NCBI GenBank assembly: GCA_964469295.1
Contig: CAYXYJ010000001.1
Location: forward strand, 34,334-98,333
Direction of reading: 5' to 3'
Source of the DNA: an uncultured Candidatus Saccharibacteria bacterium
GTDB taxonomy: Bacteria > Patescibacteriota > Minisyncoccia > Phycocordibacterales > UBA918
Length of the DNA stretch: 64,000 bases
Every line of letters begins with the position of its first letter. The stretch's first letter is position 1. The position numbers and the translations under genes were made by a program. Positions 23,857 through 50,053 of the stretch are shown one piece after another. Below the pieces are notes generated by a model that searched no databases, had not been told where the DNA came from, and was given only the letters and a program-made list of their open reading frames with translations.

Positions 23857-23882
23857 TTACATTATGACACACTGGTTGCGCA

Positions 23883-25205
23883 TTAATTTTTGTAACTCAC
23901 ATCTACTCCTTGGGCAATGAGTTTTTCAAAGTACCGAGTAATATCGTCAGCTTCTTTTTCAGACAAGGCTAATCCATGAGTCCGCACCCCTTGCATAAGT
24001 CGAGCATTAAAATCAACTTCTTCAGCCACACCAGTCACTCGGTCAGCAATCAATTCAACCAAATTTGCATTTTGGTCTTTTGATAATTTCATATTCCACG
24101 TATGGAGCAAATGGTCACGCAATCGTTCAGCAAGTGTATGCTGACTGAAAAATACCCCGGCGTTGTCTTTTTTTGCTCGAAACCGCCGAATATCATCAGC
24201 TTGGTGAATCATCTTTTCACTACGTTTCGCCATTTCTTTGGCAACTTTCTCTTCTATTTGTACTCCCCCTCTCTCTAGTGGCAACACGAGTGATTTGATA
24301 AAAGCATCCCGATCAATTTTTCCTTTTATAAAAAAGCCAATGGCACGCTCGAGGCGTTGTAATTGATCAAACGTGTAATCTTGAGTTAAATAGTTGACCA
24401 TGCTTTTGATACGTAACGTATCAACCGAATCATAGGGAAATAAACGAGCTAATTGTTCTAACTCAGTCACAATTGTTTCACCTTCACGCACTGGTTTGAT
24501 TTGTTTTCGTTGTGGATTAACGACTTCACGGACAATAAAGCCATCCTTGAGGTAATACACTCGGTGAGCGTACGACAAGTGAGCCGCGTTGTGCGATACC
24601 ATAATAATGGTCCGTCGATCAAACGTATTAATTTCGTCAATTTTGTCCATTACTTGTTGTGTCGAAATAGAATCAAGGTTACCGGTTGGTTCATCCGCAA
24701 GTAAAATTTTTGGATCATTCACCATACTTCTTGCTACCGATACACGCTGCTGTTGACCGCCAGACAACATTGAAGGAATTTTATGTGACACATGCCCTAC
24801 CCCAAATCGATCAAGCAGTGACTGGGCGCGACGATTACGGGCTTGTTTGTCAGCGTTACAAAAAATCATTGGGAGTGCTACATTATCAAGCACCGAAAGA
24901 GACCCAATGAGGTTAAAGGATTGAAAAATAATCCCCATTACATACCGCTGAAAATATACTCGTTCTGATGGCGGATACGAATAAATATCGTCACCGCGAA
25001 TGAGGAGGGTTCCATCGCCAGGAGGTAACGAACCTTGAATGGAATACATGAGGGTTGATTTACCCGAACCAGAAGCACCGAACAAAATAATATATTCGCC
25101 TTCGTAAATGTCGGTATTTACATTTTGGAGCGCTCGAAACTCGTTGCTTTTACCTTTGTTATATATTATCGAAAGATCCCGACAAACGATGAGCGGTTTT
25201 GCCAT
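23883..25205 (-). CDS. ABC transporter ATP-binding protein (MacB/LolD-type NBD) with ~210-aa C-terminal extension of unknown function
   Basis: Walker A GASGSGKST, signature LSGGQQQRVSVARS, Walker B ILLADEPTGNLD and H-loop MVSHN. An additional 210 aa follow the NBD, which is unusual. Confidence 0.8.
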   Translation of the reverse strand: MAKPLIVCRDLSIIYNKGKSNEFRALQNVNTDIYEGEYIILFGASGSGKSTLMYSIQGSLPPGDGTLLIRGDDIYSYPPSERVYFQRYVMGIIFQSFNLIGSLSVLDNVALPMIFCNADKQARNRRAQSLLDRFGVGHVSHKIPSMLSGGQQQRVSVARSMVNDPKILLADEPTGNLDSISTQQVMDKIDEINTFDRRTIIMVSHNAAHLSYAHRVYYLKDGFIVREVVNPQRKQIKPVREGETIVTELEQLARLFPYDSVDTLRIKSMVNYLTQDYTFDQLQRLERAIGFFIKGKIDRDAFIKSLVLPLERGGVQIEEKVAKEMAKRSEKMIHQADDIRRFRAKKDNAGVFFSQHTLAERLRDHLLHTWNMKLSKDQNANLVELIADRVTGVAEEVDFNARLMQGVRTHGLALSEKEADDITRYFEKLIAQGVDVSYKN

Positions 25206-26755: not shown

Positions 26756-29700
26756 TTATGGTGAAACTGGAGTAAAAACGTTGATACCTTGGTGTGGCGC
26801 ACTATTAACACCAAGAGGTACCGAGATTCCCCAATACAATTGTGTCGAGACGAGAGGGCTTTCAGTTACTGGTTTGTCCAGATTAACTGCCAATTCAACG
26901 GGTGTCGTACTTGACAGAAGTGAACAGGTAGCACAAGCACTATATGAGAACGTTGAAGTTGCCAGTTTTTGTTGTGAGGCTGGAATCACTGATGAATGTC
27001 CGTCAGAGAGATCGGTTCCGAGAATTTCGAGATCAAAGGCAACATTACCAGTATTTGAGACTGTCGTAGTTGGATTATAGGTTCCAGTGTTATCATCAGG
27101 CGCTAATGACCCATAATTAATCGCACTATCAACAGTTAGAGCACGCAACGTGAGCAACTCGACACCGAGCGCTGAGGCAAAATCATACCCACCACCCGTA
27201 TCATTGACTTCCATATAGGCCATCCATTCTTCCCCTTCATATGCACCGGCATCAGTTGGATCGGCATGGAAGTAAATATCAGATGAACACACCAATGAAC
27301 AAGTGTTACCGCTACATGCCGTTAAGTGACAACTATTATTGGTGGTTGAAATGTAACAATTGTTTGTGTTTGCCGAACAAGCCGCACCGGCACCACTGCG
27401 ATACATGGTTGAGGTACCACTGACAATATCAGCGTACCCATTAAAGTCAGTAACTGTACTTGAAGCAACGATCGTTGTGGTTGCGTTTGGTGTCAGCACA
27501 ATCGGCTGTCCATTATTTAGCGTCACTGGACCAAATACCGGATCGAATTGCAACCCTAATTCAGGAACCGCTTCATAATAGTCTAATGGAGTACCATTAT
27601 TGGTCACACGGAAACAATAGCTATCGGACGCCGCTACAGTCGGAGTGATGACATACTCTAGTTCAGTATATGTATGTTGAGGAACATCCATTGCGCTGGT
27701 ACTCGTGGCTGGACTTTCCACGATTCGACCAGTGGTATAGCCGCCACTCATATTTGCCAGTAAGTCAGTAGTATTGTCGTCACCAGTAATATATGACGAT
27801 GATTGCATACATACGGGTGAAGATCCGCATGAAGCCTGGTTTGGTACTGGCGCAAACGAACCTTGAGCCACTGACTCGCAACTTGGAGCCGACGCTTTCG
27901 CTGCGTAATCTAGGCGGAATTGTTGACTGGTAATATCAAGACCAGTGTTTTCAATACCAATACGTAAGCGACGAGTTTCACCCGGAATGGCTCCACCCAT
28001 AGCATTTTGAGCCGCTGCCCACGTAGAGCCACCAGCCGTTTGCTTGGCTCCAAAGTACACTGTTGGTCGCCGTGGACTAAGACCGCGGACAGTGTAACTA
28101 TCCCAAGAACCGTTTTGGAACCAGAAAGTAAAGCCCATACCGCCAGAAGTGTAACTACTGTTAATAACAGTCGTACTCGCCACCAATGATCCGGCGGTGT
28201 TATACAAGTAGGCACTGATGCGGTTGTTGGTAAACCAATCGACTTCAACTTCGTACCAACCCGTAGCGTACGTGACGGTGGTCGATGCCAAAATAGTTCC
28301 AGACACATCGTTATCATCAACGTCTTTTGATATCACCATACGATCTGTACCGAATTGTTCCAAACAAATTGCGTAATTATTATTTGCATTTTGTACAGCA
28401 AACAATGTACACGCTTCATCACCGGAACCAGCACTAATATCAATATATTGCATCCAACGGATTGTTTGATCTTGCGCTGTTTGCGAACCAGTGCGGTAAA
28501 TACCATCAGTGGTACGGCCACTCTTATTTGATGCTTCAAGCGCATAGGTACCACCGTATACTGGAGCAGTATCCGTTTGGAAGAGACTGGTGTCACCACT
28601 ATATTCAGTAATATTGTTGTCTTCAAACGTATCGACAAAGGTAAAGGTATTACCTGCATTACTGGTTGATGAAGCCGTTCCATTACCATAATACATAAAT
28701 ACAGTCGCTGCACCGGTGGCTGGAACACTTGGTACTTGCACCCACACTACGGCTTCGGTACTCGCCACATAGCGTTCGATCCAATACGGTAACGATGTCA
28801 ACCCATTATTACCAGTGAATCGTAGATCATCGAAGTCCGATTGCATACTGTTATCGTACGTCACTAACAACTTTACAGAGGTTGTCGCATACGAGTTGCC
28901 AGTAGCATTATGTACGCGAACACGTTGACGATAATCCCAGTCTCCGTCAAACCATTCGCTATCTGGGGCTCCTTCTCCACCGTTGTCCATACGCCACCGA
29001 GCATCAGATTGGGTGGTCAACAGACAAGCACTGTCATTAAATCGAATTGATCCACAAGCATCAAGACCGTCAATGTCAAATCCTTCAGTTCCAAGTGAGC
29101 CGTAGGCATCAGTAAACCGCCACGCGTTTGTTGTCGTACCAACCAACTCCACACCGTATCCAGATACGGCACCCGCATGCATTCCAATCGCGTTATAAAT
29201 TTCCGATGCGTTGGCGTCTACCACACTACTGGTGACAGTAATCAAAGATCCAGTATCAACCACTAATCGTAAATTATTATTACTGAATTGTGATAGATTG
29301 ACATTTCCTGATAACGCAATACCTTCTGACCACATATCAGTCACTGAGGCATACCGCATTGACAATGAACCACCCATAGCGCTAAAAGCATAGGTGCCAC
29401 CATTAAGCGCTGCTATCGATGTGGTTGCGCCAACGCCACCAATAATATCCAGGGTACCAGACATCAATGTACTTGAAGCTGACGGGGCAAAACGTACCGT
29501 TACCGAACGTTGGGCTGGACCAGTGAGTGTTGTTCCATCAAAATCAATTGAATAACTCCAATATTCAGACGTCGTAGCAATGGTAAAGTCACCATAAATA
29601 TTAAGTACCCCATCAACCGCTCCGTGATCTTGTGAATACAACGAAGCAGTCAATCCAGTCGTAGTCGTGGCAGCTGAACTGTTCCACATACGAACGTGCG

Positions 29701-32700: not shown

Positions 32701-35700
32701 CCGCCGCAAAGAAATGAGAAGATTGGATGAAGAGTAGCCCTAATACGGTAGTAGTCGTGGCGGTTGCTGGTGTGGTTGTACCCACTATTGATCCGTTTCC
32801 TAAGGTGAGATTGTTGACCGTCCACGCAGTATTACCACCAAAGGTATTTGATTGTTGTAATGTCAGCGTGCCACCACCCAATGACAACACACCGTTACCA
32901 GTAATTGAACCATTGGTTAAAGTGATATTACTCGTACCGGTAACAGTTCCCGCATTAACATTCATTGCGCCATTAACAACGAGCGGTGCCGTAATATTCC
33001 ACGCCCCACCCGCACCAACAAATTGCAGGTTATTGAACGTAACGGTATTTGGAGCAGTAATGCTCTTACCGGTGGTAGTGGCTGTAAAGACAAACGTTGA
33101 TGAAGCCGGGGTAAGGATCGACGTTGTGGCCATCACCAATCGGCCGGCCAATGAATGAGTTTCTGTACTAGTTGCCAAGAACGTGGCGTCAGCACCAATT
33201 TGTAGGGTCCCTTCAGCACTTGAGGTTCCGGCGTTACCAAGCAATGATACATTGCCACCCGGCGCGAAAGTCGATGAAGCAAACACCGACAACCCTGACC
33301 CTGACAACACTGACAGCGAAGACGTCGTCGCGATGAAGCGAATATCCGTATCATTATCGTAGTCATACAATACCAAATCAGCAATCGTTAACGGTGCGAC
33401 ATCTTGGTGTCTTGTCGTCAAATAATTTGCATAAATATTCATATTGGTGATATTGGCAGTCGGCGTTTTGGTCACACTCACCCCTTGCGCACCACCGTTG
33501 GTATTGAGGTACACCGTAATCTTTGGATCGCCAATGTATGTCACATTACTAAATGTGTACGCACCAGTGGCCGCATTACAACTCGTTGACGCCGTGTATG
33601 AACCGCTATTTACCACTAATCGAACATTTGGTGTGGAACCGTTACAGGTTGGAGCACCGATTGGTGAACTACCGTTAGCACCATAGACAAAGCCAGACAC
33701 GGTGATGGTATTCGAACTGTCGTCAAAACGAATTGACCCCGGATTACCATCATTAGTATCAAACGATTCGCCGTATAAATTCCCCACCCCGTCACGGAAC
33801 CAAATAAATGATGAGGTAGTGCCAACCAGCGTAACGTTTGACGCTAGACCGGTTGAGGTGGCAAAACCGATACGGTATAACTGGGCTGACGCATTTTTTG
33901 TCACGGTGCTACTACTAACAGTGATAGCAGTTGAACCAGACGCGACGGTAAAGAATCCATCTCTAAAGATACTGAGAGTCGATGACGCATATAAACCAAG
34001 TCCAGCGTTGTTCGTACCAGACACCCTAAATTGTTCGGCGGTAACAGTTGTATTTGAAGCATTTAATGTATAAGTACCTGCCAATGCATCAATAGTAGAC
34101 GATGCCCCAGCCACACCAACAAAATTGAGTGATGAGTTTACAAATCCAATATAGCCACTCGTTGCTACTCGTATATCCACTTGTCGAGCACTACTCGTGC
34201 CCAATGCTGTGCCGTCAAAGTCCGTGGCGTAACTCCAATATTCAGTACCAGTTGAACGAATATAATTACCATAAATATTCAAATCACCATCAACGCCGGC
34301 ATGATCTTGTGAATAAATTGAACTGGTATCAAGTGTACTGTACGTAGAGGCACTACTATTCCACATAGCCACATCGGTATCACCAACCACTTGTAACGTG
34401 CCGTACACATCACCACCATGAGATTTATTATTCATTGTATGGTCCGTACCAGACAACCGCAAAATCGAACCCGTCCAGGTTGTCGCTGTTCCCGAAGCGG
34501 CGTTGGTAAACGTCCCGGTTGATTCAAGAATGCGACCATTCTGTAGCGTAAACTGCGACGCTGCTGACAACAAGATAGCCGTCGTGGCGGTGGCGTTTTC
34601 GGTTACGGTGAAGTCACCTGATGCACTATTAAATTCCAATGTCGCAAAGGTGGAACTACCCGCGGCAATTGTTTCAGCTCCCGCAGTTGAATTAAAGCGA
34701 ACCGTTCCCCCGTTAGCAATAAATTTGGCGTTATTATCAAATGAGCCACCAACGCTCAGGATTCCCGTTGGGAAAGTAGCATCACCAGAAGTATCCAGGA
34801 TAAAGTTGCCGAGGATTGATACATTTGTATCTGTGAAAATTCTTGATCGCACCAATTCTACGCCGCCAATTGTATAAAAATTAGTGGTAGTACTGGTATT
34901 TTTGTATTCAGCATCCTGCCAAGCCGTACTACGAATAACGTTTGAAATACGAATTTCATCAAGCCGGCCATCAAATTCAATATTACGGTTATCACGCAGG
35001 TCTCCAATTGTTGAGTAAGAGTTCCAGGTGGCTGCACCATCGTTGCTAAATGAAAGCACAGGATTAGCGTTGACTCGTACTGTTGAGGCACCACCGTCAA
35101 TGGCCGTCGCTGACACGAAATTCCATTGTCCGGTCGAAATACCCGCGCCTGATGTTGTGTTACAAGTTGAATTTGATGTAAAAGCACAGAATTTCAATTC
35201 CGAGGTAGCTCCCGTCCCTCCAGCCGTTAACCAGGTGTAATTCGTATCGTGGGCTGAGAAAATGGTAAACCCATACGTTGCCGTGTCGCCAGAACCAGTT
35301 AAATCATCCGGATTAAACCAAGCAGATATAGTGATATTTGCCGAGCCGTAACCAACATTTGGAATAGTAATATCGTCACCGCTGTAATCTTGGGCATTAT
35401 ATATTTTGCCGGTTGTAACGACTTGTGGGTTATTTGCGCTATCTTTTGTTCCATCTCGTGATGTCGTTGCACTGTTTTTGATGCTACTGGTAGTAAGGTC
35501 ATTCATGTGCGCTACAATAACGTACCCATTATTCCACACTGCTAATGAGCCATACGTCGCATTGTTGGCATAACCACTCGCCGCAGCGTTGCCGTAATAT
35601 ATATAGAATGTTGCATCAGTAGTAGAAGAAAGTGCGTTAGCTCTAAAATATAATTCTCCGACTTGCGTACCAGTGTTGATTGACACCAATTCAATTGGTA

Positions 35701-41700: not shown

Positions 41701-44700
41701 CTGGAGTAATCTCATTAGCAAAACCACTAACGACTCCAGACACATACGTTGTAGAAGAGACAAAATTTGCGGTCGTAGAAATCTGTACCTCATATTCCAT
41801 ACTATCTCCCTGAGGATCAGCAGTTTGGAAACGCAAAATCGGTGTTGCAGAATTTACTTTAGCGTTATCAAACGGGGTAATATGATTTGGCATTGTGATA
41901 CGCTCGCCCCACAATAATGACCAGCTTTCCAGTCGTGGTAAGCTATCATTCCCCGTCATAATCGCCCTAATGCGAATAGTGTGATACACCGTAGTACTGA
42001 GACTAGCGAGACTCACACCAGACGTATCAAACCCAGCCGCATTACCAGGCAAATCAGCATCCGGTATCAATTCCCATTCGTTTCCGGACACCAGATATTC
42101 AATCGAATATTTTATATCTCCTGATGATTCATTGTCGGTAAATTGTAGTAAGCCCCACGCATTGCCGGTATCAACATCAGAAAAATGAATAGCCGTACTT
42201 GTTGTTGTGGCCACCGTAAAGCCAGTAGCAATACGAATATCGTCAGCAACATTAATAGCGGCATCGATTAAATCATCGGTGTCAAATTGTTCTTTGGTAG
42301 TTTGGAACCACGTCGTAATAGCAGTGGCAGTATTGATGGTGACACTTTTTGCCGTTGACCATTCACCATAGGCTCCAGAGCCTTCATCATCACGGGCTCG
42401 CACTCGCCACCAATAGGTGGTGTTGTTACTAAGAGCAGTTTCCGGAATAAAACGGATGATTTGGCCAGGTGTATACAATCCACGTTCAGACGGACTTGAT
42501 AAATTGGTGAATTGAGAGAAATTAGCTCCCGATTCACTGACAACATCTGGCGAACCAAACGTGTAGTCAGTATCCACTTCAATTTCGTACGACAACATAT
42601 CATCCAAAGCGTCAGTAGTAGCAAATTCAAACCACGGTGTTGTTGATGCTGTTTGTTCGTTATCAAATGGCGCAAACAAATCTGTCGATAGAGGCGGTGC
42701 ATTAGTGATCAGTCGAGGGTATCGATTATATACACTTAACAACGCATCATTCTCATACACTAAACGGAAACAATAATTAGTATTAGCAACAGCATTGTTA
42801 TTTTGAAGGACAAAATCCCATTCAGCACTACTTCCGACCACAATTTGGTGTTGATTTTCACGAGTAGGATTTTCCTCTTCATACGTTTCGGCATAGGTTG
42901 AAGACGCAAGTAATGTACTTGGTAAATTGCGACCGTCACTAATCAATTGTTCTTCAGAAATATCGTAAAATCCAGTTGGATTACCTTGGTTAAAATACTC
43001 CGTTCTTAACCAACCATTGGTACGACGAACATTTGAAAAACGTAATTCATCGATATCTCCTTCAAAGCCTTGTGATGGATCACCGCCAAAATTGTGCCAA
43101 TTTGAATTACCGTTTTGAGCCACATCTCCAAATAAACGGGTGGTTGAACCATTAAAATGGACGTCAACTTTGTTGCTACTGTCTCGTGTAACGACAACAT
43201 ATGTCCACGTACCATCTGCCGGGTGATTAATTGCCGTGTCACTGGAACCTCCTGGCAACACCCGCACAAAGGCTCGTCCGTTACTTGGTGTATTCCAAGC
43301 ACCAATTTTTTCATTTGAACCGCCATCAGCACTCGCCAATGCAAAACCATTACCATCAACAATATTTTGGGTTCGCCACCACAAAGAGACGGTGAAGGTT
43401 CCTGAAAAAGTAAGTACATTTTCAAAGAATGCCCCATCGTTTCCATCGTGATTTATAGCTTGACCAACCTTACCACCAACCACATCTCCAGCAGTCATAC
43501 CAGCAGTACCTCGCACCACCGCATCATTACTATACGACGTACTGTCTTTTATTTGTGGACTGGACGCAGCCGGATTATCGTCCATAGCATACCGCAATCG
43601 ATATCCATTAGACCACACATTTTCCGAGCCGTATGTTCCATTTGCAGCATACCCCGAAGCACCGGGATTGTTGTAGTAAATATAAAATTCGCTATCAGTA
43701 GTTGAAGATACCGACGCTTTAAAATGTAGCTCTCCCGTTTTGCTAATCGTATTAATGGCTACTAAATCTCGCGGTACTTCAGTCAAGCCATCAGCAGTCG
43801 TAACGCGAATATCATCACCATCACTTTGAACACTCGCAAAGAAACCGTCAGGTAGATCTGCTAAATCTACATATACCGGGAAATCCGTGAGGTCTTCGCT
43901 TACTAATGTATGATCAACGGTAATTTTTAATCGGCGAGCCCAACCAGAGGCATACCAATCATCACCAACCACCGCATTAGCATAACCACGCCACAACGCA
44001 GTCGTACTGCCGATTTCTCCTACATCTTGCCAATTTAGCGAAGGTGAACACGTCAAACCAGGAGCATATTGCAACTTTAATGTGACGGTGCTGGTTGGTG
44101 TATTAATATTCAATCCCCGCAATGATGTCCGTAAACGAATTGTCTCATTAACACTAATAGCATCTCCCGCACCAAACGATGTATTGATGGGAGTATCAAT
44201 GATACCAACCGGCCACGGATCAGTCGGCGTCAAGAAACTACCATTTACAAACCACTGATATTCATTTTGAATTAACTTTGGTTGACGTACCCAAGTAATA
44301 TTCCAATCATTGAGAGAGGCCGATACTTCAGCGGCGGTCGTAATTGCTGCTTCAAGACAAATTTGTGAATAGGTAGTGGTACTAAGACCAGAAAGATCAA
44401 TCGGAGCAGAGGCCGCTGAAAAACCTGTATCATTTCCGGTGAGTACACCATCAGGAATATAGGCATCACATGTTCCCACGTTTGAATATTTGACTCGCAC
44501 CTTTATCGTAGCGCCAATTGGCTCAGTTGTCGAAAACGACAAGTCGCCCCATTTTGACTGACCAGCAACACTAGAGAAAGCGACTGGGCGCGTAGTCATC
44601 GTACCAGCCGAATAACTAAATCGCCGTGTAGCAATTGAAAATGATTCACTACGCGGATCAGCGTTCGTTTCCGCCGGATTAGCTTGAATCAGTGTATTTG

Positions 44701-47700
44701 GGGACCAATTTGTACCATTAAACGTACTCGCGCGTAATGGATCAACGCCTTGATTTTCCATTCCGACTGCCAATATTGTACCGTCCCCAGTTCGCGCTGT
44801 TTGTAGGTACCAAAATTCCTCCATATCCGACATATCGAGCGGACCCGACCAACTGGTATTAAGATACTGATATTCATCAGTATTGGCATCAGAATAAGCC
44901 ACGATAAAATTACCGTCCCGGCCAGGTATCGTTTCAAATTCACAATCAAATGGACGACTTTGAGTAGATTCTGTTGTGCTTTCAAGTTGGACCTCAGTAC
45001 CCCACACTTCACCATCCCAAATAATTGCGTTGATATCAGAGGCGTCGTCCACCATACAAAAACCAATTCGGTCAGTACCTTGGTCACGCACCAGCTGTCC
45101 ATTTTCAAAATCATTAGTATTCCCAGATACCTGCACCGTAAAGACCGCTGACCAATCAGCTCCATTCCAGGTAGCGTATCGGAACTCATTATCGTTACCA
45201 TCAGATGATACGACCATGGCCTGATCACCAGATTCTTCATAGACCACACTCATACCCTCAGTGGCAACGTTGGTCCCGGCTACCCGTCCAAGAGCAATAC
45301 TATCAATCCACGCAGTACCGTCCCAAACATGGGCTTCGTAATTATCAGCCGCATTTTTTGTCACCAGAATCAATTCATCGGACGTCGGATCAGCGGCAAT
45401 CGTGAGCCAATTACAGTTATTGGTTGATGCGACATCAACCGAGCTTGTTGCCGACCAAGTACTGCCATTCCAAATAGTGTACACCGGATCTGCTCCAACA
45501 CTACACGCCACCACCATTGCATCTCCAGATGTGGTCTCGTGGGCAACAGCTAGTCCACGTCTTGCTGGGGTATTTAAATCTGTTACAAACTCGTTTTGAT
45601 GTCCCCACGATGATGTACTGGCACTGTACACAAGAGCATTCACATCACCGTCAGCAGTAATAAACGATGCCACGTATTCATCACGAATATTGCCAGCAGA
45701 TGATTCGGCCCAATAAATTTCCGCTCCAAGATTAGGTCCGTTGGTTTGTGCTCCCCAGGCTGTCCCATCCCATAATCGGTACATCATGACGGTTTCAGTT
45801 TTTTCACCGTATACCAGCATCGCTTCCGTGTTATCGATAACATCAACCACAGCACCACCAGATCCATTACCAACGACACCAACTAAGTTATTACTTAAAA
45901 ATTGCGCGTCGACAGTTTGATACCAATCAGGCAATGTCATCAATGTATTGACAGTAAGACTCTGTGTCGTCGACCAATCGCCAAATTCATTTGAACCAGA
46001 CACGTCCTTAGCCCGTACGCGCCAATAATAAGTGTTGCCACTTACCAAAGCATCAGCCCCTTGTAATTGATACCGAATTTTTTGTCCTTCAATAAATGGA
46101 CTGGTATCGCTTGTTGAAGCAGTATTAGTAAAACCACTGTCAATATTAGAAAATCGCTCTATCGCTCCAACGAAATCACTCGACGTTGAAATTGAAAATT
46201 CGTACACCAAATCAGAACTGCCATCAGGATCGGTTGTACTAAAATCAAAATATGGCGTTGTCGACGCAAAGCGAACATTATCAAATGGAGCATTGTAATA
46301 GGTAGCAGCACCTGGTCGAAAATTGAGCTCCTTCTTTTTCCATAGCATTAACAATGCGTCAGTACGATCATTTACGACAGTAGTATTGGCATCCCGTAAT
46401 GCCTGCACACTCACGATGGTTCCCGGCGTTAAACCAGCTAAATTATAAACCAGTGAACCAGAAGAATCTTGGTGGCCGGAGCTGTTTGTTACATAGTGAG
46501 ATTTCGTTTGAGCGCCCGGCACTGCCACTCCATTTACAAACACACTAATTATAACGTTATTGGTTCCTCCTGCAGTGTAGAGCGCATCGTTATACGTCAA
46601 GAGATAGTCTCCACTTTCGTTAATTGTCACATCACCAGTGTTGGAAGATGTAGAATGAGTAAAGGTGATGTTATCGTACGCTATTTGTGTATCCCATAGT
46701 ATCTTTTGAGCAGGACTTGGGTTCCAGTTAGTACCACCAGAAAGATCACGTCCTCGTAAAGCAATAACGTCATCAGTCGGGAGTTTTTGAATAAAAACTG
46801 ATCCAGTAAATCCATTCGGCACGGTTGTGGTACCCGCCGACGCTTCTTGTTCCATCGTGATAGTCAATATTTGGTTGGTAGTGGTAGCCACAACAATACC
46901 CGACCAGTGGTTTGTGGAATAATAGTCAGCATTGGCCGTAACTATTTGTAATCCCTGAGAAAAAACTCCTCCAGGCACTTGTGCTCCATCAAGAAATACT
47001 CTTCCGAGCACGTTACGGTAGGCAGTCGCTCGTGAATCGAATGGCATATTAACATACACTAAATACATACCGGGGTCTGAAATAGTGATATTCTCAGGAT
47101 TTATGGTGTCAGAGTGAACATAGCCAGAATCTTGGCGGGTTTCTGTCCACAATAACGCCGATGTCGCCGTGTTAAGACTCGTTGATGCTACCGTTCTGGT
47201 CGCTGTGGCCGCAAACACATCAGCGGTTGTCGGCATATGCTCGACATAGAGACTGGCCTGACCGCTAATAGTAATCGGTTGCGCCACATAACTAGTAAGT
47301 GCTTGTGCATATACTTCAATATAATCACCAACATGGAGATTCGTAAGTAAAAAACTACCATGATCAGATGATTCATTTTGCCGATCAGTGGAACTAGCGT
47401 TATAAATTAAACCACTTCGACCAATAGCGTGTGGCACCACGACACCATTCACTCGCACTTCAAATCCAACACGGGCCCATTGGTTATTAATTGTGTCATT
47501 ACGTTCCAGCGGTATAGTGACAGATACTTGATAATCACCATTTTTCTGAACATACAATCGCTGTGGCGATGAACTCGTCGAGTGCGCAAAATAAAATGAA
47601 TCAACGGTACTTGTACTCCATAATAATGCACTTGGTGACACTTCATTAAGATTGGTTCCCAACTGTGAACGAGTGCCAGTTAACCACGCTACCGAAGAAA

Positions 47701-50005
47701 TCGCATCAGAAGCAATTTGCCATTGACGCAACTCCTTAAATCCATCCATGTCAAGTGGCCCAAGCAAATACAAATATGGACTAATATCCGGAGCATCAAA
47801 GACATACGTTAGTTGCTTGGTTTCACCAACTTCCATCGTCACATCTTTCCACGTAATAAGCGTCGCCTCTTCCAGTGTTGTCACTTCTCCACCACTGGTG
47901 TCAGCAAAAACAAATCCCCGAGGAACACGTTCGACAATATCGCCGGTAAATGATCGATTCGCTTTAATATCGAGTGTCACTGTATATGGTGCAGGCGGAT
48001 AAATACGCGTTGGTGCCGTGCGCGTAATATCGTACGGAATGTAGTCACTCACCGTAAACGAATCAGAAATTTTATGAACAACTTCCCCTTCCAGATTTCG
48101 ATTTTCTAGTTGGATGGTATAGACACCCCATTCGTCAGTATCAGTAAAGGTGGCAATATAATCCGGTTCTTCGGTCACATTATTTGGTCCACAGGCACCA
48201 GTTTGTGTCACAGGCACTTCAAAAATTTCATTTTTGGGATCAATAATTTTAAGTGACAAATCTGCATTACAAATTGTGTCACCCTTGGCTGTCAAAGCCG
48301 CAATATCCAGCTCTACAGTTTCGTTCGGAGAATATTGACTTTTGTGTGTGTTAATAGCAAGCACTCCCCAATAAAATTCAAAACTATCAGAATATTCCGT
48401 TTCGTTTTCATTAACAGTAACTCGCAACCGATAAACGCCAGGTACAAATTTTTGTGGTTGACGCATGACTTTTATTGTCCAGGTTGTTTCGTCTTGGTAT
48501 ACAATTGAAAATGGCACGTCAAGAACGTCACCGTTCTTGTCGACTAATTCGATTTTATCTACAGCGTATAAATTTTCTCCAAAAAGATTATTAAAAATCC
48601 GCTTTATAAACGCTTGTTGTGGGTCATAACTCATCGTAAACGATGGCAAATTATTCACCGTCATGTCCGTCCCTTCAATGGAAAGTTCATGAAACTTCGG
48701 TTTCTCCAAATCGCGTTCATAATCAAGACGATCGGTTAAAGCCGGGTCAGCTGGATTTTCATAAAATTGACCGGACGTTACTTCCAACCATACGCCATCA
48801 ACATACACAGCATCGAGATCTGACTTAATACCTTCATACGTCACTTTTACTGCCAATGCCGATAAATCTTTGGTGTACGATGGCACTTCTAGTGAAACAA
48901 GAAAATGATCACCATTGATACTGTTGGAAATTTCTTCGTTAATATCAATAACGGTTCCAGTTTTCCACGCCACTCCATCAAGCGCATATGATACGACGAT
49001 TCTTTGCACCTCACTTGATACTTTGGCACGCGCTGCCAAAGACAATCGTAACTGTACAGTATCAAGAACGGTACCAGGCAAAAATTCTGGCAAAGCAAAA
49101 CCTTTGAAAGTAAGTGTATCTGATTCACATTTAATGATTTCACTACAAGGAGTCACTCCAAATACTTCAGGTAGTTGCGAATTTTGGTCTGTTGTTGACG
49201 AGTTAGTCGACTCATCTATTGGTATTGGTGAGGATTCAGCAATAGAAGAATCTTCAGTGGTAGTTGACGATACAGCAGCGTCAACTGATTCAGTTTCGGT
49301 AGTATCAATTGTCTCAATAACTGCGACAGTTTCTTCTTCGGTAGTAGTAACATCATCAGACGTCATTTCATCTTCAACGGATACCTCATTGTCATATTGC
49401 GCCCAAGGAAAACGATCGGTGGTGGTAGTGTACGTCGGAATACTCAATGGCACAACTACCGATACTGATTCATTAGTGGCTTCTGAATTATTATTTGTTT
49501 CAACTTCAGTAATCGGCTCATTATCGTCTGTTGGAACTACTGTAGTTTCTTCGGCTCCAGCATCGGGCACTGCGCCATCAACACCAGAATCAGTATCTTC
49601 ACTACCGTTGTTGGTTGATTCGTTTGTTTCATCAATAATTGGTTCTTCGACACTATTTACATTCTCACCAGTATCAATAGTATCGTCAACAATATATGTT
49701 ATGTAAGCCGAATTTTCTTTTGAAAAGGATTGGTATAGCCCATCACCAGACACATCTTCAATTAATACCGAACCGAGGCCCTGCCAGGTATCTGAGGTTA
49801 CTTCACTAGGAACTATAATCAATTGTTCAGTGGTATACACCGTTCTATCAATCGTGGCCGCAAACGCCAAAAAGCCACTGATAAAAACAATTACCAGTAG
49901 GACCCTCCAAGTCACACGGTTTAAAAATGGAATGTGGTGTAACACAACTCTAACGTCCAACTCATTGCAGAGATTGGACTGCATATAGTATAACGCGCCG
50001 GTCAC
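26756..50005 (-). CDS. giant (7749-aa) multidomain secreted surface/adhesin-like protein
   Basis: A single uninterrupted 23.25-kb ORF. It has an N-terminal signal/TM (VTWRVLLVIVFISGFLAFAA). It carries three FN3-like modules (..TYYWRVRAKD, ..TTYWWRVRARDDEG, ..TTYWWRVRARDINDEN). Two ~450-aa propeller-like duplications have W[DN]G..W blades. A ~760-aa Gly-rich region is present. Long G/T/S/N-rich beta-helix-like repeats occur (..GTFAHNNGEVRF..). Three DUF2341-like + LamG-like modules are present (DWYASGWARRLKITVDH..., SWNYRLPIVVKANQISAGLTNFPVYVDL..., DWDYRQRVRVHNATG..., each followed by ..GDIDELRFSNVRRT-type jelly-roll). A Cys-rich C-terminus closes the protein. The annotated first codon is GTG; an ATG lies 7 codons downstream (49984). 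Confidence 0.85.
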   Translation of the reverse strand: MTGALYYMQSNLCNELDVRVVLHHIPFLNRVTWRVLLVIVFISGFLAFAATIDRTVYTTEQLIIVPSEVTSDTWQGLGSVLIEDVSGDGLYQSFSKENSAYITYIVDDTIDTGENVNSVEEPIIDETNESTNNGSEDTDSGVDGAVPDAGAEETTVVPTDDNEPITEVETNNNSEATNESVSVVVPLSIPTYTTTTDRFPWAQYDNEVSVEDEMTSDDVTTTEEETVAVIETIDTTETESVDAAVSSTTTEDSSIAESSPIPIDESTNSSTTDQNSQLPEVFGVTPCSEIIKCESDTLTFKGFALPEFLPGTVLDTVQLRLSLAARAKVSSEVQRIVVSYALDGVAWKTGTVIDINEEISNSINGDHFLVSLEVPSYTKDLSALAVKVTYEGIKSDLDAVYVDGVWLEVTSGQFYENPADPALTDRLDYERDLEKPKFHELSIEGTDMTVNNLPSFTMSYDPQQAFIKRIFNNLFGENLYAVDKIELVDKNGDVLDVPFSIVYQDETTWTIKVMRQPQKFVPGVYRLRVTVNENETEYSDSFEFYWGVLAINTHKSQYSPNETVELDIAALTAKGDTICNADLSLKIIDPKNEIFEVPVTQTGACGPNNVTEEPDYIATFTDTDEWGVYTIQLENRNLEGEVVHKISDSFTVSDYIPYDITRTAPTRIYPPAPYTVTLDIKANRSFTGDIVERVPRGFVFADTSGGEVTTLEEATLITWKDVTMEVGETKQLTYVFDAPDISPYLYLLGPLDMDGFKELRQWQIASDAISSVAWLTGTRSQLGTNLNEVSPSALLWSTSTVDSFYFAHSTSSSPQRLYVQKNGDYQVSVTIPLERNDTINNQWARVGFEVRVNGVVVPHAIGRSGLIYNASSTDRQNESSDHGSFLLTNLHVGDYIEVYAQALTSYVAQPITISGQASLYVEHMPTTADVFAATATRTVASTSLNTATSALLWTETRQDSGYVHSDTINPENITISDPGMYLVYVNMPFDSRATAYRNVLGRVFLDGAQVPGGVFSQGLQIVTANADYYSTNHWSGIVVATTTNQILTITMEQEASAGTTTVPNGFTGSVFIQKLPTDDVIALRGRDLSGGTNWNPSPAQKILWDTQIAYDNITFTHSTSSNTGDVTINESGDYLLTYNDALYTAGGTNNVIISVFVNGVAVPGAQTKSHYVTNSSGHQDSSGSLVYNLAGLTPGTIVSVQALRDANTTVVNDRTDALLMLWKKKELNFRPGAATYYNAPFDNVRFASTTPYFDFSTTDPDGSSDLVYEFSISTSSDFVGAIERFSNIDSGFTNTASTSDTSPFIEGQKIRYQLQGADALVSGNTYYWRVRAKDVSGSNEFGDWSTTQSLTVNTLMTLPDWYQTVDAQFLSNNLVGVVGNGSGGAVVDVIDNTEAMLVYGEKTETVMMYRLWDGTAWGAQTNGPNLGAEIYWAESSAGNIRDEYVASFITADGDVNALVYSASTSSWGHQNEFVTDLNTPARRGLAVAHETTSGDAMVVACSVGADPVYTIWNGSTWSATSSVDVASTNNCNWLTIAADPTSDELILVTKNAADNYEAHVWDGTAWIDSIALGRVAGTNVATEGMSVVYEESGDQAMVVSSDGNDNEFRYATWNGADWSAVFTVQVSGNTNDFENGQLVRDQGTDRIGFCMVDDASDINAIIWDGEVWGTEVQLESTTESTQSRPFDCEFETIPGRDGNFIVAYSDANTDEYQYLNTSWSGPLDMSDMEEFWYLQTARTGDGTILAVGMENQGVDPLRASTFNGTNWSPNTLIQANPAETNADPRSESFSIATRRFSYSAGTMTTRPVAFSSVAGQSKWGDLSFSTTEPIGATIKVRVKYSNVGTCDAYIPDGVLTGNDTGFSAASAPIDLSGLSTTTYSQICLEAAITTAAEVSASLNDWNITWVRQPKLIQNEYQWFVNGSFLTPTDPWPVGIIDTPINTSFGAGDAISVNETIRLRTSLRGLNINTPTSTVTLKLQYAPGLTCSPSLNWQDVGEIGSTTALWRGYANAVVGDDWYASGWARRLKITVDHTLVSEDLTDFPVYVDLADLPDGFFASVQSDGDDIRVTTADGLTEVPRDLVAINTISKTGELHFKASVSSTTDSEFYIYYNNPGASGYAANGTYGSENVWSNGYRLRYAMDDNPAASSPQIKDSTSYSNDAVVRGTAGMTAGDVVGGKVGQAINHDGNDGAFFENVLTFSGTFTVSLWWRTQNIVDGNGFALASADGGSNEKIGAWNTPSNGRAFVRVLPGGSSDTAINHPADGTWTYVVVTRDSSNKVDVHFNGSTTRLFGDVAQNGNSNWHNFGGDPSQGFEGDIDELRFSNVRRTNGWLRTEYFNQGNPTGFYDISEEQLISDGRNLPSTLLASSTYAETYEEENPTRENQHQIVVGSSAEWDFVLQNNNAVANTNYCFRLVYENDALLSVYNRYPRLITNAPPLSTDLFAPFDNEQTASTTPWFEFATTDALDDMLSYEIEVDTDYTFGSPDVVSESGANFSQFTNLSSPSERGLYTPGQIIRFIPETALSNNTTYWWRVRARDDEGSGAYGEWSTAKSVTINTATAITTWFQTTKEQFDTDDLIDAAINVADDIRIATGFTVATTTSTAIHFSDVDTGNAWGLLQFTDNESSGDIKYSIEYLVSGNEWELIPDADLPGNAAGFDTSGVSLASLSTTVYHTIRIRAIMTGNDSLPRLESWSLLWGERITMPNHITPFDNAKVNSATPILRFQTADPQGDSMEYEVQISTTANFVSSTTYVSGVVSGFANEITPADTTPFNSNEVISYTFQSPLSNNTTYWWRVRARDINDENAYSDWSAPNSFTVSVGLGVSTWFQTTGDQFLTNDNRNIEKTETQAQITTTITEAMVAYGESTSFLPRYRIWDGAAWSDPQTALEVGALIEWSDLKAAPKRNEYALATLGTDGDVNVQIYDGLTGTWGDMNELVTSIANTGYRGESIAYETNSGDLLAIACEGTNAVYSVWNGSSWSATSSISLTKGTNCQFIQTASDPTSDEIIAVFKHEITGSPDYEALVWNGSSWGHSLTFGDMSRAANEGIAVDYEASGNQAIIVVSNGNNAGFLYNTWDGSNWSGTLAQTLQDDFEHGVIKRDVGTDRLAFCAIDIDGQISTTLWDGAAWDTYTTLDTAGNSQAGRPVSCEFETTPSRDGYVMIPYSDTVNARYQYYATSSYSGEQNITGLNLNVGAWTTQTIRTANGLILAMFLKDDSIAPADQYLFTYWDGTAWTGQEVISSLPSVNGTPFHDSIAMAAQISPNFVDGTIRSTPINFSDGGSPRWESIGWNDTTPGASLIKYRVYYEVSTGTYALVPDSEIAGNAAGITSGPVDITDLEPVIYKKLQLEAELICDSGDCPALLDWYVEWSEGISISGIAFAYDQSTPLTEGTIAVAINGVLQSGKTANISAATGTQKAIFSSTGTSTFTVPASVTAVTVKAWGGGGGGGGGGVSNAGAFGGGGGFVQATLPVTPAENLSVRVGGGGGGGLFASPAGAGAGGGYAGIYRSSTPLVIAGAGGGGGAGGGGIGYVGVGIECAVSATNCSPNIPQGTAEHDVLIAVLHSRTATAHTCVTNCSGWTEFSSQTSGNGQLSVWYLRQGTTTPLMPTFGGPATDSYIGRIWAFRGVARTGNPFDQVSANNSQTAATTYTGPNLSSTVANSMLVFVGGSLDDRDWGPSGGSCGMPSGVNTAFYSTNTNGNDNSIFLCFDDTPTNSAGSLGVPSMTQSAAFAGRSFNFNLRPETATQLASAGAGGAGGGLVGGNGGANDTVFSVTGGATTDMFGFRHHVFTSSDTFQVTSGTRSVDLLLVGGGGGGGGYRYGGGGGGAGAIKILENQVLGTSSYAVTIGAGGTGGDNTDTANGNGQTGGTTSFAANTAIGGGGGLRGDRPNDGSTGFFGASGGGGGSTNVNAVSHAGGTSTAGFGNDGGAGGSANATNDQSGGGGGGAGSAGSAGSNTSGGNGGVGRDLSAWWGTSVGVSGWFGGGGGGGKRNAETAGTASHGGGNGGVGNNNGVTATANTGGGGGGAGGTSATQYGGGGGSGLVIARYRIPLLASTGGTQSAGGTAGGAATSGASLLGGAGDSGVSGGAGGTAEVFGGGAGGTGNSATAEAGGGGGGAGYFGGGGGARGMNALHSGAGGAGGSSYIYASATATSTIAGSGAGAANIGDADYAGGAGNGGAGGAAGSAGTAGGNGRVVISWVGSTTPGVWNIPNVNVAVGDVVTIFRQSVDGSLEAVAVTKYDGNGDITGMQLSSRHVTIGSDDAPIIANNDLEVYKNSDNEDIFYDVAGGNILNLCNESTCGDAGLRVLSGSTYQPGANGSVIHFQNNGTFLPTMNTLRVRGDWKQLGTFTTDASTIIFTATSTSPQIESATTSIEFANVTFGETSGAAIWTLSKPLSVKGSLAINYGTLARNTQTIAIMGNLSLGSSGTMTGLATTSFTGSGAHTWGDAKSATTSTNAGYVVVDGTAKTITLSGNVGADTVTIGADDTLNSSGSGYNINVYKAWVNNNSFIPQTGTVTFVGTSTGVIYRGASSFNNLAFTGVGGNWSFSTSTLALTGNLTIATGTVTLPTGTTTIAGSFLNTGGTFAHNNGEVRFTSTSGGRTITQRATAFLNTFYDVVFAGSGAWSFSESAATTTRHFRIQSGTVTMPTGTLTVGGDFNVSGTGAFAHNNGEVVFLVQDANTVRANGSAFNHVRTRGGVAGSWYNDSWNYRLPIVVKANQISAGLTNFPVYVDLHDLPSSFFSNTKADGGDIRVTQSDGMTEVPIELVSINTGTQVGELYFRANALSSTTDATFYIYYGNAAASGYANNATYGSLAVWNNGYVIVAHMNDLTTSSIKNSATTSRDGTKDSANNPQVVTTGKIYNAQDYSGDDITIPNVGYGSANITISAWFNPDDLTGSGDTATYGFTIFSAHDTNYTWLTAGGTGATSELKFCAFTSNSTCNTTSGAGISTGQWNFVSATAIDGGASTVRVNANPVLSFSNDGAATWNSYSTIGDLRDNRNIEFDGRLDEIRISNVIRSTAWQDAEYKNTSTTTNFYTIGGVELVRSRIFTDTNVSILGNFILDTSGDATFPTGILSVGGSFDNNAKFIANGGTVRFNSTAGAETIAAGSSTFATLEFNSASGDFTVTENATATTAILLSAASQFTLQNGRILESTGTFTNAASGTATTWTGSILRLSGTDHTMNNKSHGGDVYGTLQVVGDTDVAMWNSSASTYSTLDTSSIYSQDHAGVDGDLNIYGNYIRSTGTEYWSYATDFDGTALGTSSARQVDIRVATSGYIGFVNSSLNFVGVAGASSTIDALAGTYTLNASNTTVTAEQFRVSGTNNAGLGLYASSTLSIFRDGFFTVASGSTAITVSSSTVTKNASAQLYRIGFATSTGLASNVTLVGTTSSFIWFRDGVGNLYGESFDTNDGNPGSIRFDDSSNTITVSGFVYGANGSSPIGAPTCNGSTPNVRLVVNSGSYTASTSCNAATGAYTFSNVTYIGDPKITVYLNTNGGAQGVSVTKTPTANITNMNIYANYLTTRHQDVAPLTIADLVLYDYDNDTDIRFIATTSSLSVLSGSGLSVFASSTFAPGGNVSLLGNAGTSSAEGTLQIGADATFLATSTETHSLAGRLVMATTSILTPASSTFVFTATTTGKSITAPNTVTFNNLQFVGAGGAWNITAPLVVNGAMNVNAGTVTGTSNITLTNGSITGNGVLSLGGGTLTLQQSNTFGGNTAWTVNNLTLGNGSIVGTTTPATATTTTVLGLLFIQSSHFFAAGSSTWDLAGTGTVFTETGTFIEGTSRVRYSGNSATVLGTTYYDLVINAAAGSSTMTAIGSGLATLNNLVIGGTASTTFNLNTNDPAVTVGNDLLINTGGTVLASNSSTLTIVGSYDNNGNFVGNSGTVAFTGSGTETIAAGASPFSSVTINGTGNFTVTEHATATASWLLSNHTNFTVASSQSLAIGGSFINSIGGTSTTWTGSRLHLFGGGSMSINASTTADSYGTLSVASSTRVRMWNSDASSYIIDGGLYSQDHNSTNGLLHIYGNFNETTANDYWSYATDFDGTPLLGGNGRAVTVAFADNARGTWTGGSLSVIGSTSASTTIQNQGSGSYNLMIGGTASTSWNRVVLRNLKSSGLEFSGTPTVVDFSRTDHLVQVNGGTGITVGGTVLNANEARNFTNNVFAADIGVTGASNVTATGTAVTSWRFTNHVGNIAGENYDVDPTGDPGYLVWDDSQALITVSGNVYSDEGSTVSMVCDGVTNAVTLRVAGLTSYSTTCNASTGAYSISNVAFNTLDSLIVYIDGKTQKAAHVTKSPISSISNMHLYENRIIVRHENTDPITIADMAVWDSSDDADIPFTAVDSGNDTLDIGANRKLIIWSGKTFAPNGNVTLAGGGAGDAVDGTMEALTNARFRAANGETHSVAGDFLFGTGAVFEAGQSTTTFTSSVSGRTIDVNSNHFYNVGFTGSGSYTVTDNTFTTQRSYSQSAGSVTFGSGTTTIGASFNATGGSFTMPSTALIFTSTSTGNVVRFDDGVVPPVRFTGNGGSWSMTDTNATTTGSVYIAGGAVTLPSGSLTVGGSFEVASGTVTHNTSDIIMTGSGSLVLRANNSDLFALRKTGNGTLTMLDNSLTLRDDLVVASGTLVAATGTLSIGGSMSITGTNFTHSSGTVLFNAVTTGKTIAVGSSTLYNVNFGSASGGWTWLGNATATNNVTLSSASSFTKASSTVLVVGGVFTNLVGGSATNWTNSTLQLTGTNPFTINTKTAGGDVYATVTINSAHVRMWNSSAATTTTGLTASLYSQDHGAVDGVLNIYGDFTIATTSEYWSYSIDFDGTTLTGPAQRSVTVRFAPSASSTLMSGTLDIIGGVGATTSIAALNGGTYAFSAMGGSLSMRYASVTDMWSEGIALSGNVNLSQFSNNNLRLVVDTGSLITVTSSVVDANASEIYNAIGMHAGAVSGYGVELVGTTTNAWRFTDAYGSLGTEGFDIDGLDACGSIRFNDSACLLTTQSDARWRMDNGGEGAPDSEWFDGDWDYRQRVRVHNATGNSYATTSVKLLVTYDNSMQSDFDDLRFTGNNGLTSLPYWIERYVASTEAVVWVQVPSVPATGAATVFMYYGNGTASSTSNAGNTFTFVDTFEDNNITEYSGDTSLFQTDTAPVYGGTYALEASNKSGRTTDGIYRTGSQTAQDQTIRWMQYIDISAGSGDEACTLFAVQNANNNYAICLEQFGTDRMVISKDVDDNDVSGTILASTTVTYATGWYEVEVDWFTNNRISAYLYNTAGSLVASTTVINSSYTSGGMGFTFWFQNGSWDSYTVRGLSPRRPTVYFGAKQTAGGSTWAAAQNAMGGAIPGETRRLRIGIENTGLDITSQQFRLDYAAKASAPSCESVAQGSFAPVPNQASCGSSPVCMQSSSYITGDDNTTDLLANMSGGYTTGRIVESPATSTSAMDVPQHTYTELEYVITPTVAASDSYCFRVTNNGTPLDYYEAVPELGLQFDPVFGPVTLNNGQPIVLTPNATTTIVASSTVTDFNGYADIVSGTSTMYRSGAGAACSANTNNCYISTTNNSCHLTACSGNTCSLVCSSDIYFHADPTDAGAYEGEEWMAYMEVNDTGGGYDFASALGVELLTLRALTVDSAINYGSLAPDDNTGTYNPTTTVSNTGNVAFDLEILGTDLSDGHSSVIPASQQKLATSTFSYSACATCSLLSSTTPVELAVNLDKPVTESPLVSTQLYWGISVPLGVNSAPHQGINVFTPVSP
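37414..39685 (-). repeat. Gly-rich low-complexity coding region of the giant gene containing in-frame (GCC)n/(CCA)n trinucleotide tracts
   Basis: Protein aa ~3440-4200 is ~45% Gly (GGGGGGGGGVSNAGAFGGGGGF..., GGTGGDNTD-type GGXGXD units). The DNA shows (ccg)7 at ~39530..39549, (gcc)6 at ~37912..37933 and (cca)4(ccg)6 at ~39641..39672. Antisense Pro-rich ORFs (37500..37895, 39579..39848) are shadows of this region. Confidence 0.7.
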
Positions 50006-50018
50006 TCATGACCGGCGC
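49995..50018. promoter_or_regulatory. GC-rich perfect hairpin (gcgccggtca-ctca-tgaccggcgc) overlapping the annotated GTG start of the giant gene
   Basis: A 10-bp perfect stem with a 4-nt loop, seen directly in the sequence. It lies between the upstream cohesin gene stop (50054) and the first ATG of the giant ORF (49984). Confidence 0.5.
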
Positions 50019-50053
50019 GTTTACCCCGTTAATATGTGGATTCCGAAGTCAAA

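Follow-up and report, generated by a model that had tools for sequence, protein, structure and literature searches.

A 7749-residue predicted attachment fibre from an uncultured patescibacterium with a nested, phage-fibre-type glycine-rich insertion

Paceibacteria are uncultured, and by what means such cells find and hold their partner cells is the question on which the locus considered here bears. The stretch of DNA analysed, called the window in what follows, comprises 64,000 nucleotides from an uncultured Candidatus Saccharibacteria bacterium (GenBank assembly GCA_964469295.1, contig CAYXYJ010000001.1, positions 34,334 to 98,333 of the forward strand). As an earlier note drawn from the letters of this DNA had claimed, a single open reading frame (ORF) of 7749 residues runs unbroken along its minus strand (26756..50005), from a nominal GTG start and without internal stops; coordinates given below are positions in the window, and residues of this giant are counted from the nominal GTG. 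We propose that the giant is probably an N-terminally anchored, multivalent attachment fibre for a host or partner cell. Giant DUF2341 proteins of the Candidate Phyla Radiation (CPR) were known before; what the window presents is a variant with propellers and a nested, phage-type glycine-rich insertion.

The giant is the longest of the 32 window ORFs of at least 150 residues, and every window ORF that looks like a gene lies on the minus strand. Its nominal GTG falls within a perfect 13-bp GC-rich hairpin and its closest homologue begins ~21 residues further downstream, which makes an ATG at 49984 or a GTG at 49945 the more likely true start; such an alternative start leaves the substance of the analysis unchanged. 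At the protein level its internal repeats have diverged to 48% identity or less (self-BLAST), the longest near-identical internal DNA repeat in the ORF measures 53 nt, and no tandem repeats were found in it. A collapsed-repeat artefact, against which the earlier note had advised a check, is therefore unlikely, and collinear homologues exist elsewhere.

Alignment places the giant among 6,500- to 7,500-residue proteins from Paceibacteria metagenome-assembled genomes (MAGs) that form one family, conserved and collinear. Relatives that follow it from N- to C-terminus are P0023 (7083 residues, 48-49% identity), P0021 (7169 residues, 41-43%), P0037 (7456 residues) and P0280 (7486 residues, 48-52%). 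P0025 (6513 residues) is without both DUF2341 + LamG modules 1 and 2 (window residues 2015-2355 and 4697-5074) and is otherwise collinear, which indicates that modules come and go as complete units in this family. An alignment scan over one genome per GTDB species recovered 174 relatives of the N-terminal module (residues 515-780), the best matching at 78% and no genome being identical; nearly all come from MAGs that carry the label Paceibacteria, Kaiserbacteria, Parcubacteria or Patescibacteria, in line with the CPR origin that had been guessed for this DNA. The family is thus tractable: it is conserved, its members are spread over well above 100 species genomes, and it is not a one-off. The N-terminal module also occurs at ~37-41% identity in three MAGs labelled Aenigmatarchaeota or Woesearchaeota (L058, L075, L081; an assignment by label), in shorter ORFs (1736-2569 residues) with other domains, namely Beta_helix/NosD in L058 and Big_3_3 in L075.

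A hydropathy scan placed the sole transmembrane-like hydrophobic segment of the giant at residues 30-54, where a signal or membrane segment had been anticipated, and most of its cysteines are paired at close spacing, the pattern expected of an extracytoplasmic protein. Pfam scans were run on overlapping chunks of the giant and on single modules, with gathering cut-offs of 23.4 bits for DUF2341 (PF10102), 27.6 bits for Laminin_G_3 (PF13385), 25 bits for fn3 (PF00041), 27.4 bits for Ig_Rha78A_N (PF25788) and 24.3 bits for Gly_rich_2 (PF21722, a model of 226 positions). No cytoplasmic or enzymatic family was matched in Pfam or NCBIfam, the NCBIfam scan yielding zero matches in all nine chunks. 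Sequence searches of the PDB returned nothing meaningful for the glycine-rich block, propeller A, the C-terminus, residues 5050-5850, the N-terminal region or module 2.

The glycine-rich block had been described as a 760-residue spacer; a glycine-rich region is indeed present, of 798 residues, but rather than a spacer it appears to be a folded Gly_rich_2 module inserted in a loop. Residues 3413-4210 of the giant correspond to ~3-10 residues in P0021, P0023, P0025, P0037, P0018 and P0022, at a site within the short conserved motif NGVLQxGKTGTIxxxGxWSIxNV. A tblastn survey with flanking peptides across the related loci distinguishes three states of this site. First, 30 loci carry 2-3 residues. 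Second, five loci (L003, L009, L012, L019 and L023), and likewise P0034/P0280, carry 517-527 residues, made up of a glycine-rich N-half, a Cys-containing domain (residues 3545-3765 of the giant) and a glycine-rich C-half. Third, the window and L001 carry ~800 residues, this long form being the short form plus a complete Gly_rich_2 domain, termed GR2, which follows the Cys-containing domain and is found in the long-form clade only; L002, L004 and L007 have GR2 too, in insertions that exceed 684 residues and continue to the end of the fetched sequence. By these comparisons the block is an insertion, nested and built up in steps, in a single loop of a small domain, and it is confined to one sub-lineage of the family.

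The two glycine-rich halves, together GR1, come close to Gly_rich_2 as well. The N-half gives a partial match at residues 3425-3540 (22.7 bits against the cut-off of 24.3), and GR1 spliced in silico spans model positions 2-218 with 23.1 bits, again just below it; the two halves may belong to one Gly_rich_2 domain that the insert has split. For the Cys-containing domain nested in GR1, a dedicated search found no homologue and neither Pfam nor PHROG gave a match; a weak pairwise match (E 7e-5) links it to the N-terminus of P0001.

GR2 itself reaches 81.6 bits for Gly_rich_2 at residues 3798-4053 (model positions 7-226), above the cut-off. Matches of the glycine-rich block in PHROG comprise two families, one of them annotated "tail fiber assembly". 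GR2 has 557 homologues, typically of ~450 residues with the domain at the extreme C-terminus, and the closest of them, P0159, is a stand-alone, phage-encoded protein with 40% identity whose gene sits after those for terminase, SU10-type portal, capsid and adaptor, that is, in a phage structural module. The glycine-rich domain has no PDB match at the sequence level. An AlphaFold2 (AF2) model of GR2 built from 62 sequences reached a predicted local distance difference test (pLDDT) of 92.8 and a predicted template-modelling score (pTM) of 0.91, and Foldseek ranked 9d93_Qb, 7ypx_A, 9d93_Qa and 7yfw_a first in the PDB, then 7nx3, 7nx0, 7mzy and 7ls0. These are the tail tip of mycobacteriophage Bxb1 (9d93) and the fibre of cyanophage Pam3 (7ypx, 7yfw), followed by glycine-rich domains of ALK/LTK. 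Glycine-rich bundles of polyproline II helices have been described for the Bxb1, Pam3 and ALK/LTK structures as well as for S16 gp38 (PMC13243192), and the "brush" domains of mycobacteriophages have been described as candidate anti-receptors (PMC13243795). We therefore regard GR2 as a predicted folded, glycine-rich helical-bundle domain of the phage-fibre type.

GR2 thus resembles the glycine-rich receptor-binding domains of phages (S16 gp38, Bxb1 gp33 "brush" and gp29, the Pam3 fibre), and ALK/LTK, in its Gly_rich_2 or structural match, but not in its setting. In phages the domain forms the C-terminal end of a short fibre, whereas GR2 is nested mid-protein in a loop of a cellular giant of 7.7 thousand residues, and, unlike in the phage domains, the glycine-rich insertion is interrupted by other domains. 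The insertion series would place a phage-fibre-type glycine-rich domain within a predicted cellular adhesin, and glycine-rich low-complexity stretches accordingly call for caution in annotation and should not be written off as linkers.

GR2 shows no BLAST similarity to the glycine-rich halves and aligns end to end, at 40-42% identity, with stand-alone Gly_rich_2 proteins, so it was probably acquired separately; its derivation as a recent duplicate of GR1, by duplication in place, was rejected on the same grounds. Between species the inserted parts are conserved at 66-78%, against 65-70% for the flanks, and the GC content at third codon positions (GC3) of the insertion is 0.357, against 0.34-0.38 for the flanks; its higher total GC is accounted for by glycine and alanine codons. 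With conservation at least equal to that of the flanks and the same GC3 as the rest of the gene, the insertion can be taken as old and under selection. Recent horizontal transfer of the insertion, also considered, is unsupported, GC3 being equal to that of the flanks.

The second group of candidate binding surfaces is formed by the propellers. The earlier note had recognised their duplication, and self-comparison agrees: a super-module composed of FN3-like module, propeller and sandwich occurs twice, at residues 1240-1905 and 2711-3372 (38-43% identity). Propeller A gave no match in Pfam, NCBIfam or PDB sequence searches. A word-index search found ten relatives, mostly of 550-650 residues, among which P0005 carries the prepilin N-methylation domain PF07963 and P0006 is called PilV by the Joint Genome Institute (JGI). 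An exhaustive profile search with the trimmed propeller alignment then retrieved 4557 cluster representatives, 1487 of them at E<=1e-30. In a sample made up of the best 150 matches and the ten from the word-index search, 26 proteins exceed 3000 residues and 57 are shorter than 800; the canonical prepilin motif is present in only 5 of these 57 short proteins, and to call the propellers a pilin-fused family would be an overstatement. They rather constitute a widespread family without annotation, with ~4,500 cluster representatives, whose members turn up repeatedly in giants and occasionally in pilin-like proteins.

With the alignment from the profile search, AF2 confidently modelled propeller A as an all-beta propeller (pLDDT 86.6, pTM 0.90). 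Against the PDB, Foldseek ranked the Photorhabdus PLL/PHL lectins first (E 2.8e-13, template-modelling (TM) score 0.6-0.7, 14% identity), followed by other fucose-binding propeller lectins of the AAL type. On this model the propeller fold of region A is established, and the blade number is probably eight, which fits the eight W[DN]GxxW-type repeats of ~50 residues. The seven-bladed PLL/PHL lectins, BP39L, AAL and AFL are likewise all-beta propellers with Trp-containing repeats, but they have six or seven blades where the giant's propeller probably has eight. A lectin function, which the modelled structure makes plausible, is putative. A specific kinship with the PilY1 propeller was discarded, PilY1 not being among the top structural matches of propeller A.

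DUF2341 and LamG modules provide the third group. Most of the domain calls of the earlier note hold under profile searches (Pfam, with AF2 for propeller A), and its module coordinates agree with the profile matches. Of the three DUF2341 modules it proposed, two stand above the cut-off (residues 7057-7132, 77.2 bits; residues 4754-4816, 27.3 bits), whereas module 1 scores 13.4 bits at residues 2062-2119 and is assigned to DUF2341 solely by its homology to module 2, to which it is 45% identical across 204 residues in self-comparison. The pairing with LamG is upheld for modules 1 and 2, with Laminin_G_3 at residues 2190-2329 (42.0 bits) and 4876-5026 (47.0 bits), but not for module 3, in which Pfam found no Laminin_G_3 and for which the label "jelly-roll" is without profile support. 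The three FN3-like modules fared similarly: Ig_Rha78A_N scored 31.3 bits in the chunk with modules 2 and 3, and 31.3 bits in module 3 alone, whereas module 1 remained below the cut-off at 23.0 bits and the best score of classical fn3 in the giant was 15.6 bits, under its own. The N-terminal module has a weak MG2 match only (15.5 bits), and neither the "Ig-like" N-terminus nor the "beta-helix" stretches of the earlier note have profile support in Pfam or NCBIfam, although residues 4260-4700 may, from their repeats, be solenoid-like. The 53-nt DNA repeat mentioned above, 94% identical, lies at 41600-41652 and 42389-42441, in FN3-like modules 3 and 2 (motif NNTTYWWRVRARD); elsewhere the two modules are ~40% identical at the protein level, and the near-identity may reflect local gene conversion.

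Taken as an attachment fibre, the giant would be exported by Sec and stay tethered through its N-terminus, an acidic low-complexity linker following the anchor and some 7,400 residues of extracytoplasmic modules following the linker. The repeat stretches would form a rigid shaft, and the propellers, LamG modules and glycine-rich domain would offer several independent binding surfaces for the glycans or lipids of another cell's envelope, with gain and loss of modules tuning binding specificity. The surroundings of the gene, which encode cohesin, dockerin, Big and FN3 surface proteins and are conserved in relatives, also speak for this reading. Several points weigh against it. The case for attachment is computational throughout, for every member of the family; the Foldseek TM-scores of GR2 are modest (0.38-0.49); and with ~14% identity to the lectins, sugar binding by propeller A is putative. 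The ~2,400-residue "shaft" is without profile or structure support and could hide an enzymatic beta-helix, for instance a depolymerase. Moreover, in the closest syntenic ortholog (L001; JGI 3300056599, Ga0558124_00659; 63% identity) two deletions of one G each, TCCG[G]AAAG and GCG[G]GAGGA, at L001:20300-20365 and 22600-22665, break the giant gene into three ORFs (3454, 771 and 3553 residues), and both frameshifts fall inside the glycine-rich insertion, none in the flanking ~21 kb. Either sequencing error in G-rich DNA or a real inactivation could account for them.

A bolder version of the attachment reading, tentative and on the whole rather doubtful, is that an episymbiotic CPR lineage captured phage-type glycine-rich receptor-binding domains in two successive, nested grafts into a fibre loop, and so recognises its hosts in the manner of a phage anti-receptor. 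The states of 0, ~520 and ~800 residues would then correspond to host-range shifts, and a hairpin in the leader of the gene, described below, would serve specifically to control or stabilise the 23-kb mRNA.

The giant might instead have a structural role in the envelope or coat, like an S-layer or as a spacer scaffold, and give the cell surface its shape or protection, perhaps in an arrangement with cohesin and dockerin neighbours. ORFs of ~520 and ~640 residues precede the giant gene in most related loci; in the window and in L001 the preceding ORFs encode a cohesin-domain protein and a dockerin/Big_6 protein, and the order dockerin-HSP20-cohesin-giant is conserved in L001. The island encodes a pair of cohesin-domain paralogues (38% identical) and a pair of dockerin/Big_6 paralogues (40% identical), and several of its paralogous surface proteins have modules in common with the giant. 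Such conserved synteny would suit a coat. However, one copy of a singly anchored fibre of 7.7 thousand residues is an unlikely lattice former, Pfam detected no S-layer, SLH, cohesin or dockerin domain in the giant, and the modules that can be recognised in it belong to binding types (LamG, DUF2341, phage-fibre glycine-rich), so that we consider a coat unlikely.

We consider it quite improbable that the giant is an enzyme-bearing attack fibre, whose T/S/G-rich repeats would be tailspike-like beta-helices cutting host polysaccharide while the lectin-type modules merely serve targeting. The glycine-rich module is phage-like, glucanases are found among the ConA-like superfamily, a related N-terminal module occurs in the L058 protein together with a Pfam Beta_helix domain, and degradation of target-cell polysaccharide has been proposed for giant Omnitrophota proteins (PMC10066038), all of which would accord with a cutting role. 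Yet no Beta_helix, pectate-lyase, glycoside-hydrolase or peptidase profile matches anywhere in the 7749 residues at E<=0.1, no right-handed beta-helix or solenoid is matched in Pfam or NCBIfam at residues 4200-4700 or 5050-7000, and residues 5050-5850 have no PDB sequence match.

That the ORF results from misassembly or is a pseudogene in decay, be it a chimera or a gene normally frameshifted as the three ORFs of L001 might suggest, is very improbable and largely refuted: the window ORF is unbroken, in five independent full-length homologues a single ORF encodes the domains in the order found here, the frame runs through the insertion of L002, L004 and L007 without a stop for over 4100 codons, no near-identical repeats able to misassemble are present, GC3 is the same in the insertion (0.357) as in its flanks, and the same architecture in independent assemblies answers the worry of a chimera.

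An attachment fibre of this kind has several counterparts. The giant RTX-type adhesins of Gram-negative bacteria (LapA, SiiE, MpIBP) combine a long repetitive shaft with ligand-binding modules and mediate surface attachment. Unlike them, the window giant has an N-terminal anchor, no C-terminal secretion signal and no RTX nonapeptides; a motif check found neither GGxGxDxUx nor LPxTG in it. Of the same phylum and size class are the giants of the Patescibacterium danicum study, with which it shares DUF2341 and a proposed role in adhesion or host interaction: 82 of the 149 NCBI Patescibacteria proteins longer than 4000 residues carry FhaB and/or DUF2341, and adhesion was proposed for them (PMC11809585). 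The statement of the earlier note that DUF2341 giants are typical of CPR is thereby documented for Patescibacteria. No full-length homologues were found for the proteins of that study, whereas the window giant has collinear relatives, a family conserved in many species of Paceibacteria; FhaB, present in part of those proteins, was not detected in it, and its propellers and Gly_rich_2 insertion are unreported there (PMC11809585).

DUF2341 has also been tied to PilY-type adhesins at pilus tips, and archaeal DUF2341 proteins occur in loci for type IV pili (PMC4858521). PilY1-type tip adhesins thus have DUF2341 in common with the giant, and the fusion of some propeller-family members to prepilin-type N-termini points to a tip-adhesin module; the giant itself, in contrast, has no pilin N-terminus and no adjoining type IV pilus genes. 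Finally, the Omnitrophota offer very long single ORFs in small, host-dependent cells, some with Laminin_G_3 or dockerin domains and a proposed adhesive role. Of 116 Velamenicoccia genomes, 77 have ORFs above 20 kb, one of which codes for 39,678 residues (PMC10066038), so that to rank the window ORF "among the largest bacterial ORFs" was overstated. The Omnitrophota giants belong to another phylum, are poorly conserved and can have many transmembrane helices, whereas the window giant has a single such segment and conserved orthologs.

Table 1. Features of the giant ORF, its leader hairpin and the cohesin and dockerin/Big_6 genes of the window.
Feature	Residues of the giant	Window position	Strand	Basis or remark
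Signal anchor, transmembrane-like	30-54	49844..49918	-	Hydropathy; equivalent segment conserved in homologues
Low-complexity linker rich in T, E, S, D	95-290	49136..49723	-	Composition; homologues with similar acidic region
Family-defining N-terminal module, motifs FEFYWGVLAINT and FDAPDISPYLYLLGP	515-780	47666..48463	-	Alignment, 61-74% identity
Three diverged ~155-residue repeats	776-1230	46316..47680	-	Self-BLAST ~30% identity; TNF and SusF_SusE sub-threshold only
FN3-like module 1	1240-1352	45950..46288	-	Ig_Rha78A_N 23.0 bits, under cut-off; homologous to modules 2 and 3
Beta-propeller A (modelled)	1391-1800	44606..45835	-	Eight W[DN]GxxW-type repeats, ~50 residues each
DUF2341-like + LamG module 1	2013-2355	42941..43969	-	Laminin_G_3 42 bits; DUF2341 13.4 bits
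FN3-like module 2	2440-2560	42326..42688	-	Ig_Rha78A_N 31.3 bits, chunk holding modules 2 + 3
FN3-like module 3	2711-2830	41516..41875	-	Ig_Rha78A_N 31.3 bits
Beta-propeller B, paralogue of A	2859-3290	40136..41431	-	41-43% identical to A
Glycine-rich insertion (798 residues)	3413-4210	37376..39769	-	2-3 residues at same site in 30 related loci
GR1 N-half	3413-3544	39374..39769	-	Gly_rich_2 model positions 2-109, 22.7 bits, just under cut-off
Cys-containing domain without known family, nested in GR1	3545-3765	38711..39373	-	55-74% identical in every insertion-bearing locus
GR2, complete Gly_rich_2 domain	3775-4060	37826..38683	-	Pfam 81.6 bits; AF2 pLDDT 92.8
GR1 C-half, ending in GRVVISW strand	4061-4210	37376..37825	-	GR1 spliced in silico: 23.1 bits
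T/G/S/N-rich repeat region 1	4260-4700	35906..37228	-	Repeats common to residues 6411-6725; no Pfam match
DUF2341 + LamG module 2	4705-5052	34850..35893	-	DUF2341 27.3 bits; Laminin_G_3 47 bits
Three ~790-residue super-repeats, T/S/G-rich	5057-7000	29006..34837	-	Self-BLAST 36-48% identity; no Pfam or PDB sequence match
DUF2341 module 3	7020-7310	28076..28948	-	DUF2341 77.2 bits; no LamG match
"RLR...YCFRV" domain	7320-7480	27566..28048	-	Extra copy at residues 2355-2451; several in 2049-residue neighbour
Cys-rich C-terminal domain	7492-7749	26759..27532	-	32% identical to C-terminus of 624-residue ORF 20691-22565; kept in family members
Leader hairpin, perfect 13-bp stem, between cohesin and giant genes		49992..50021	-	No T-run after
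Four cohesin and dockerin/Big_6 genes		50054-51616, 13936-15669, 52273-54201, 18469-19593	-	

The hairpin that overlaps the nominal start is itself a conserved feature of the family (Table 1). About 21 related loci have a perfect hairpin of 13-18 bp at the same position, of the type TATA[AC]CGCG…CGCG[GT]TATA (L002-L004, L007-L009, L013, L014, L016-L023, L025, L030, L049 and L070; imperfect in L001), one per locus and found only between the cohesin and giant genes. Its inner stem shows three to four Watson-Crick pair types per position, which indicates compensatory change, and no Rfam family matches it. The T-run is missing after it, in contrast to the A/T-flanked terminator hairpins elsewhere in the same loci. 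The hairpin may stabilise or regulate the 23-kb mRNA from its 5' end, or it may serve as a U-less terminator. Apart from it, the window has just two perfect hairpins of 10 bp or more, at 20592-20618 and 56879-56917, both intergenic, the latter flanked by A- and T-runs and resembling a bidirectional terminator.

Two neighbours on the same strand share modules with the giant. A 2049-residue protein (4495-10644, minus strand), without a Pfam match, has copies of the "HWRNDDG…RLR…YCFRL" module, a homologue of giant residues 1913-2009 and N-terminal WxGxxW-type repeats. A 624-residue protein (20691-22565, minus strand), likewise without a Pfam match, ends in a domain 32% identical to giant residues 7492-7745, which marks the Cys-rich C-terminal domain as a reusable module. 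The gene for a 493-residue FN3-repeat protein (25269-26750, minus strand) begins 5 nt past the giant's stop codon, a gap short enough that the two genes are probably co-transcribed, and it is followed by a MacB-type pair of ABC ATPase and permease (22642-25205, minus strand).

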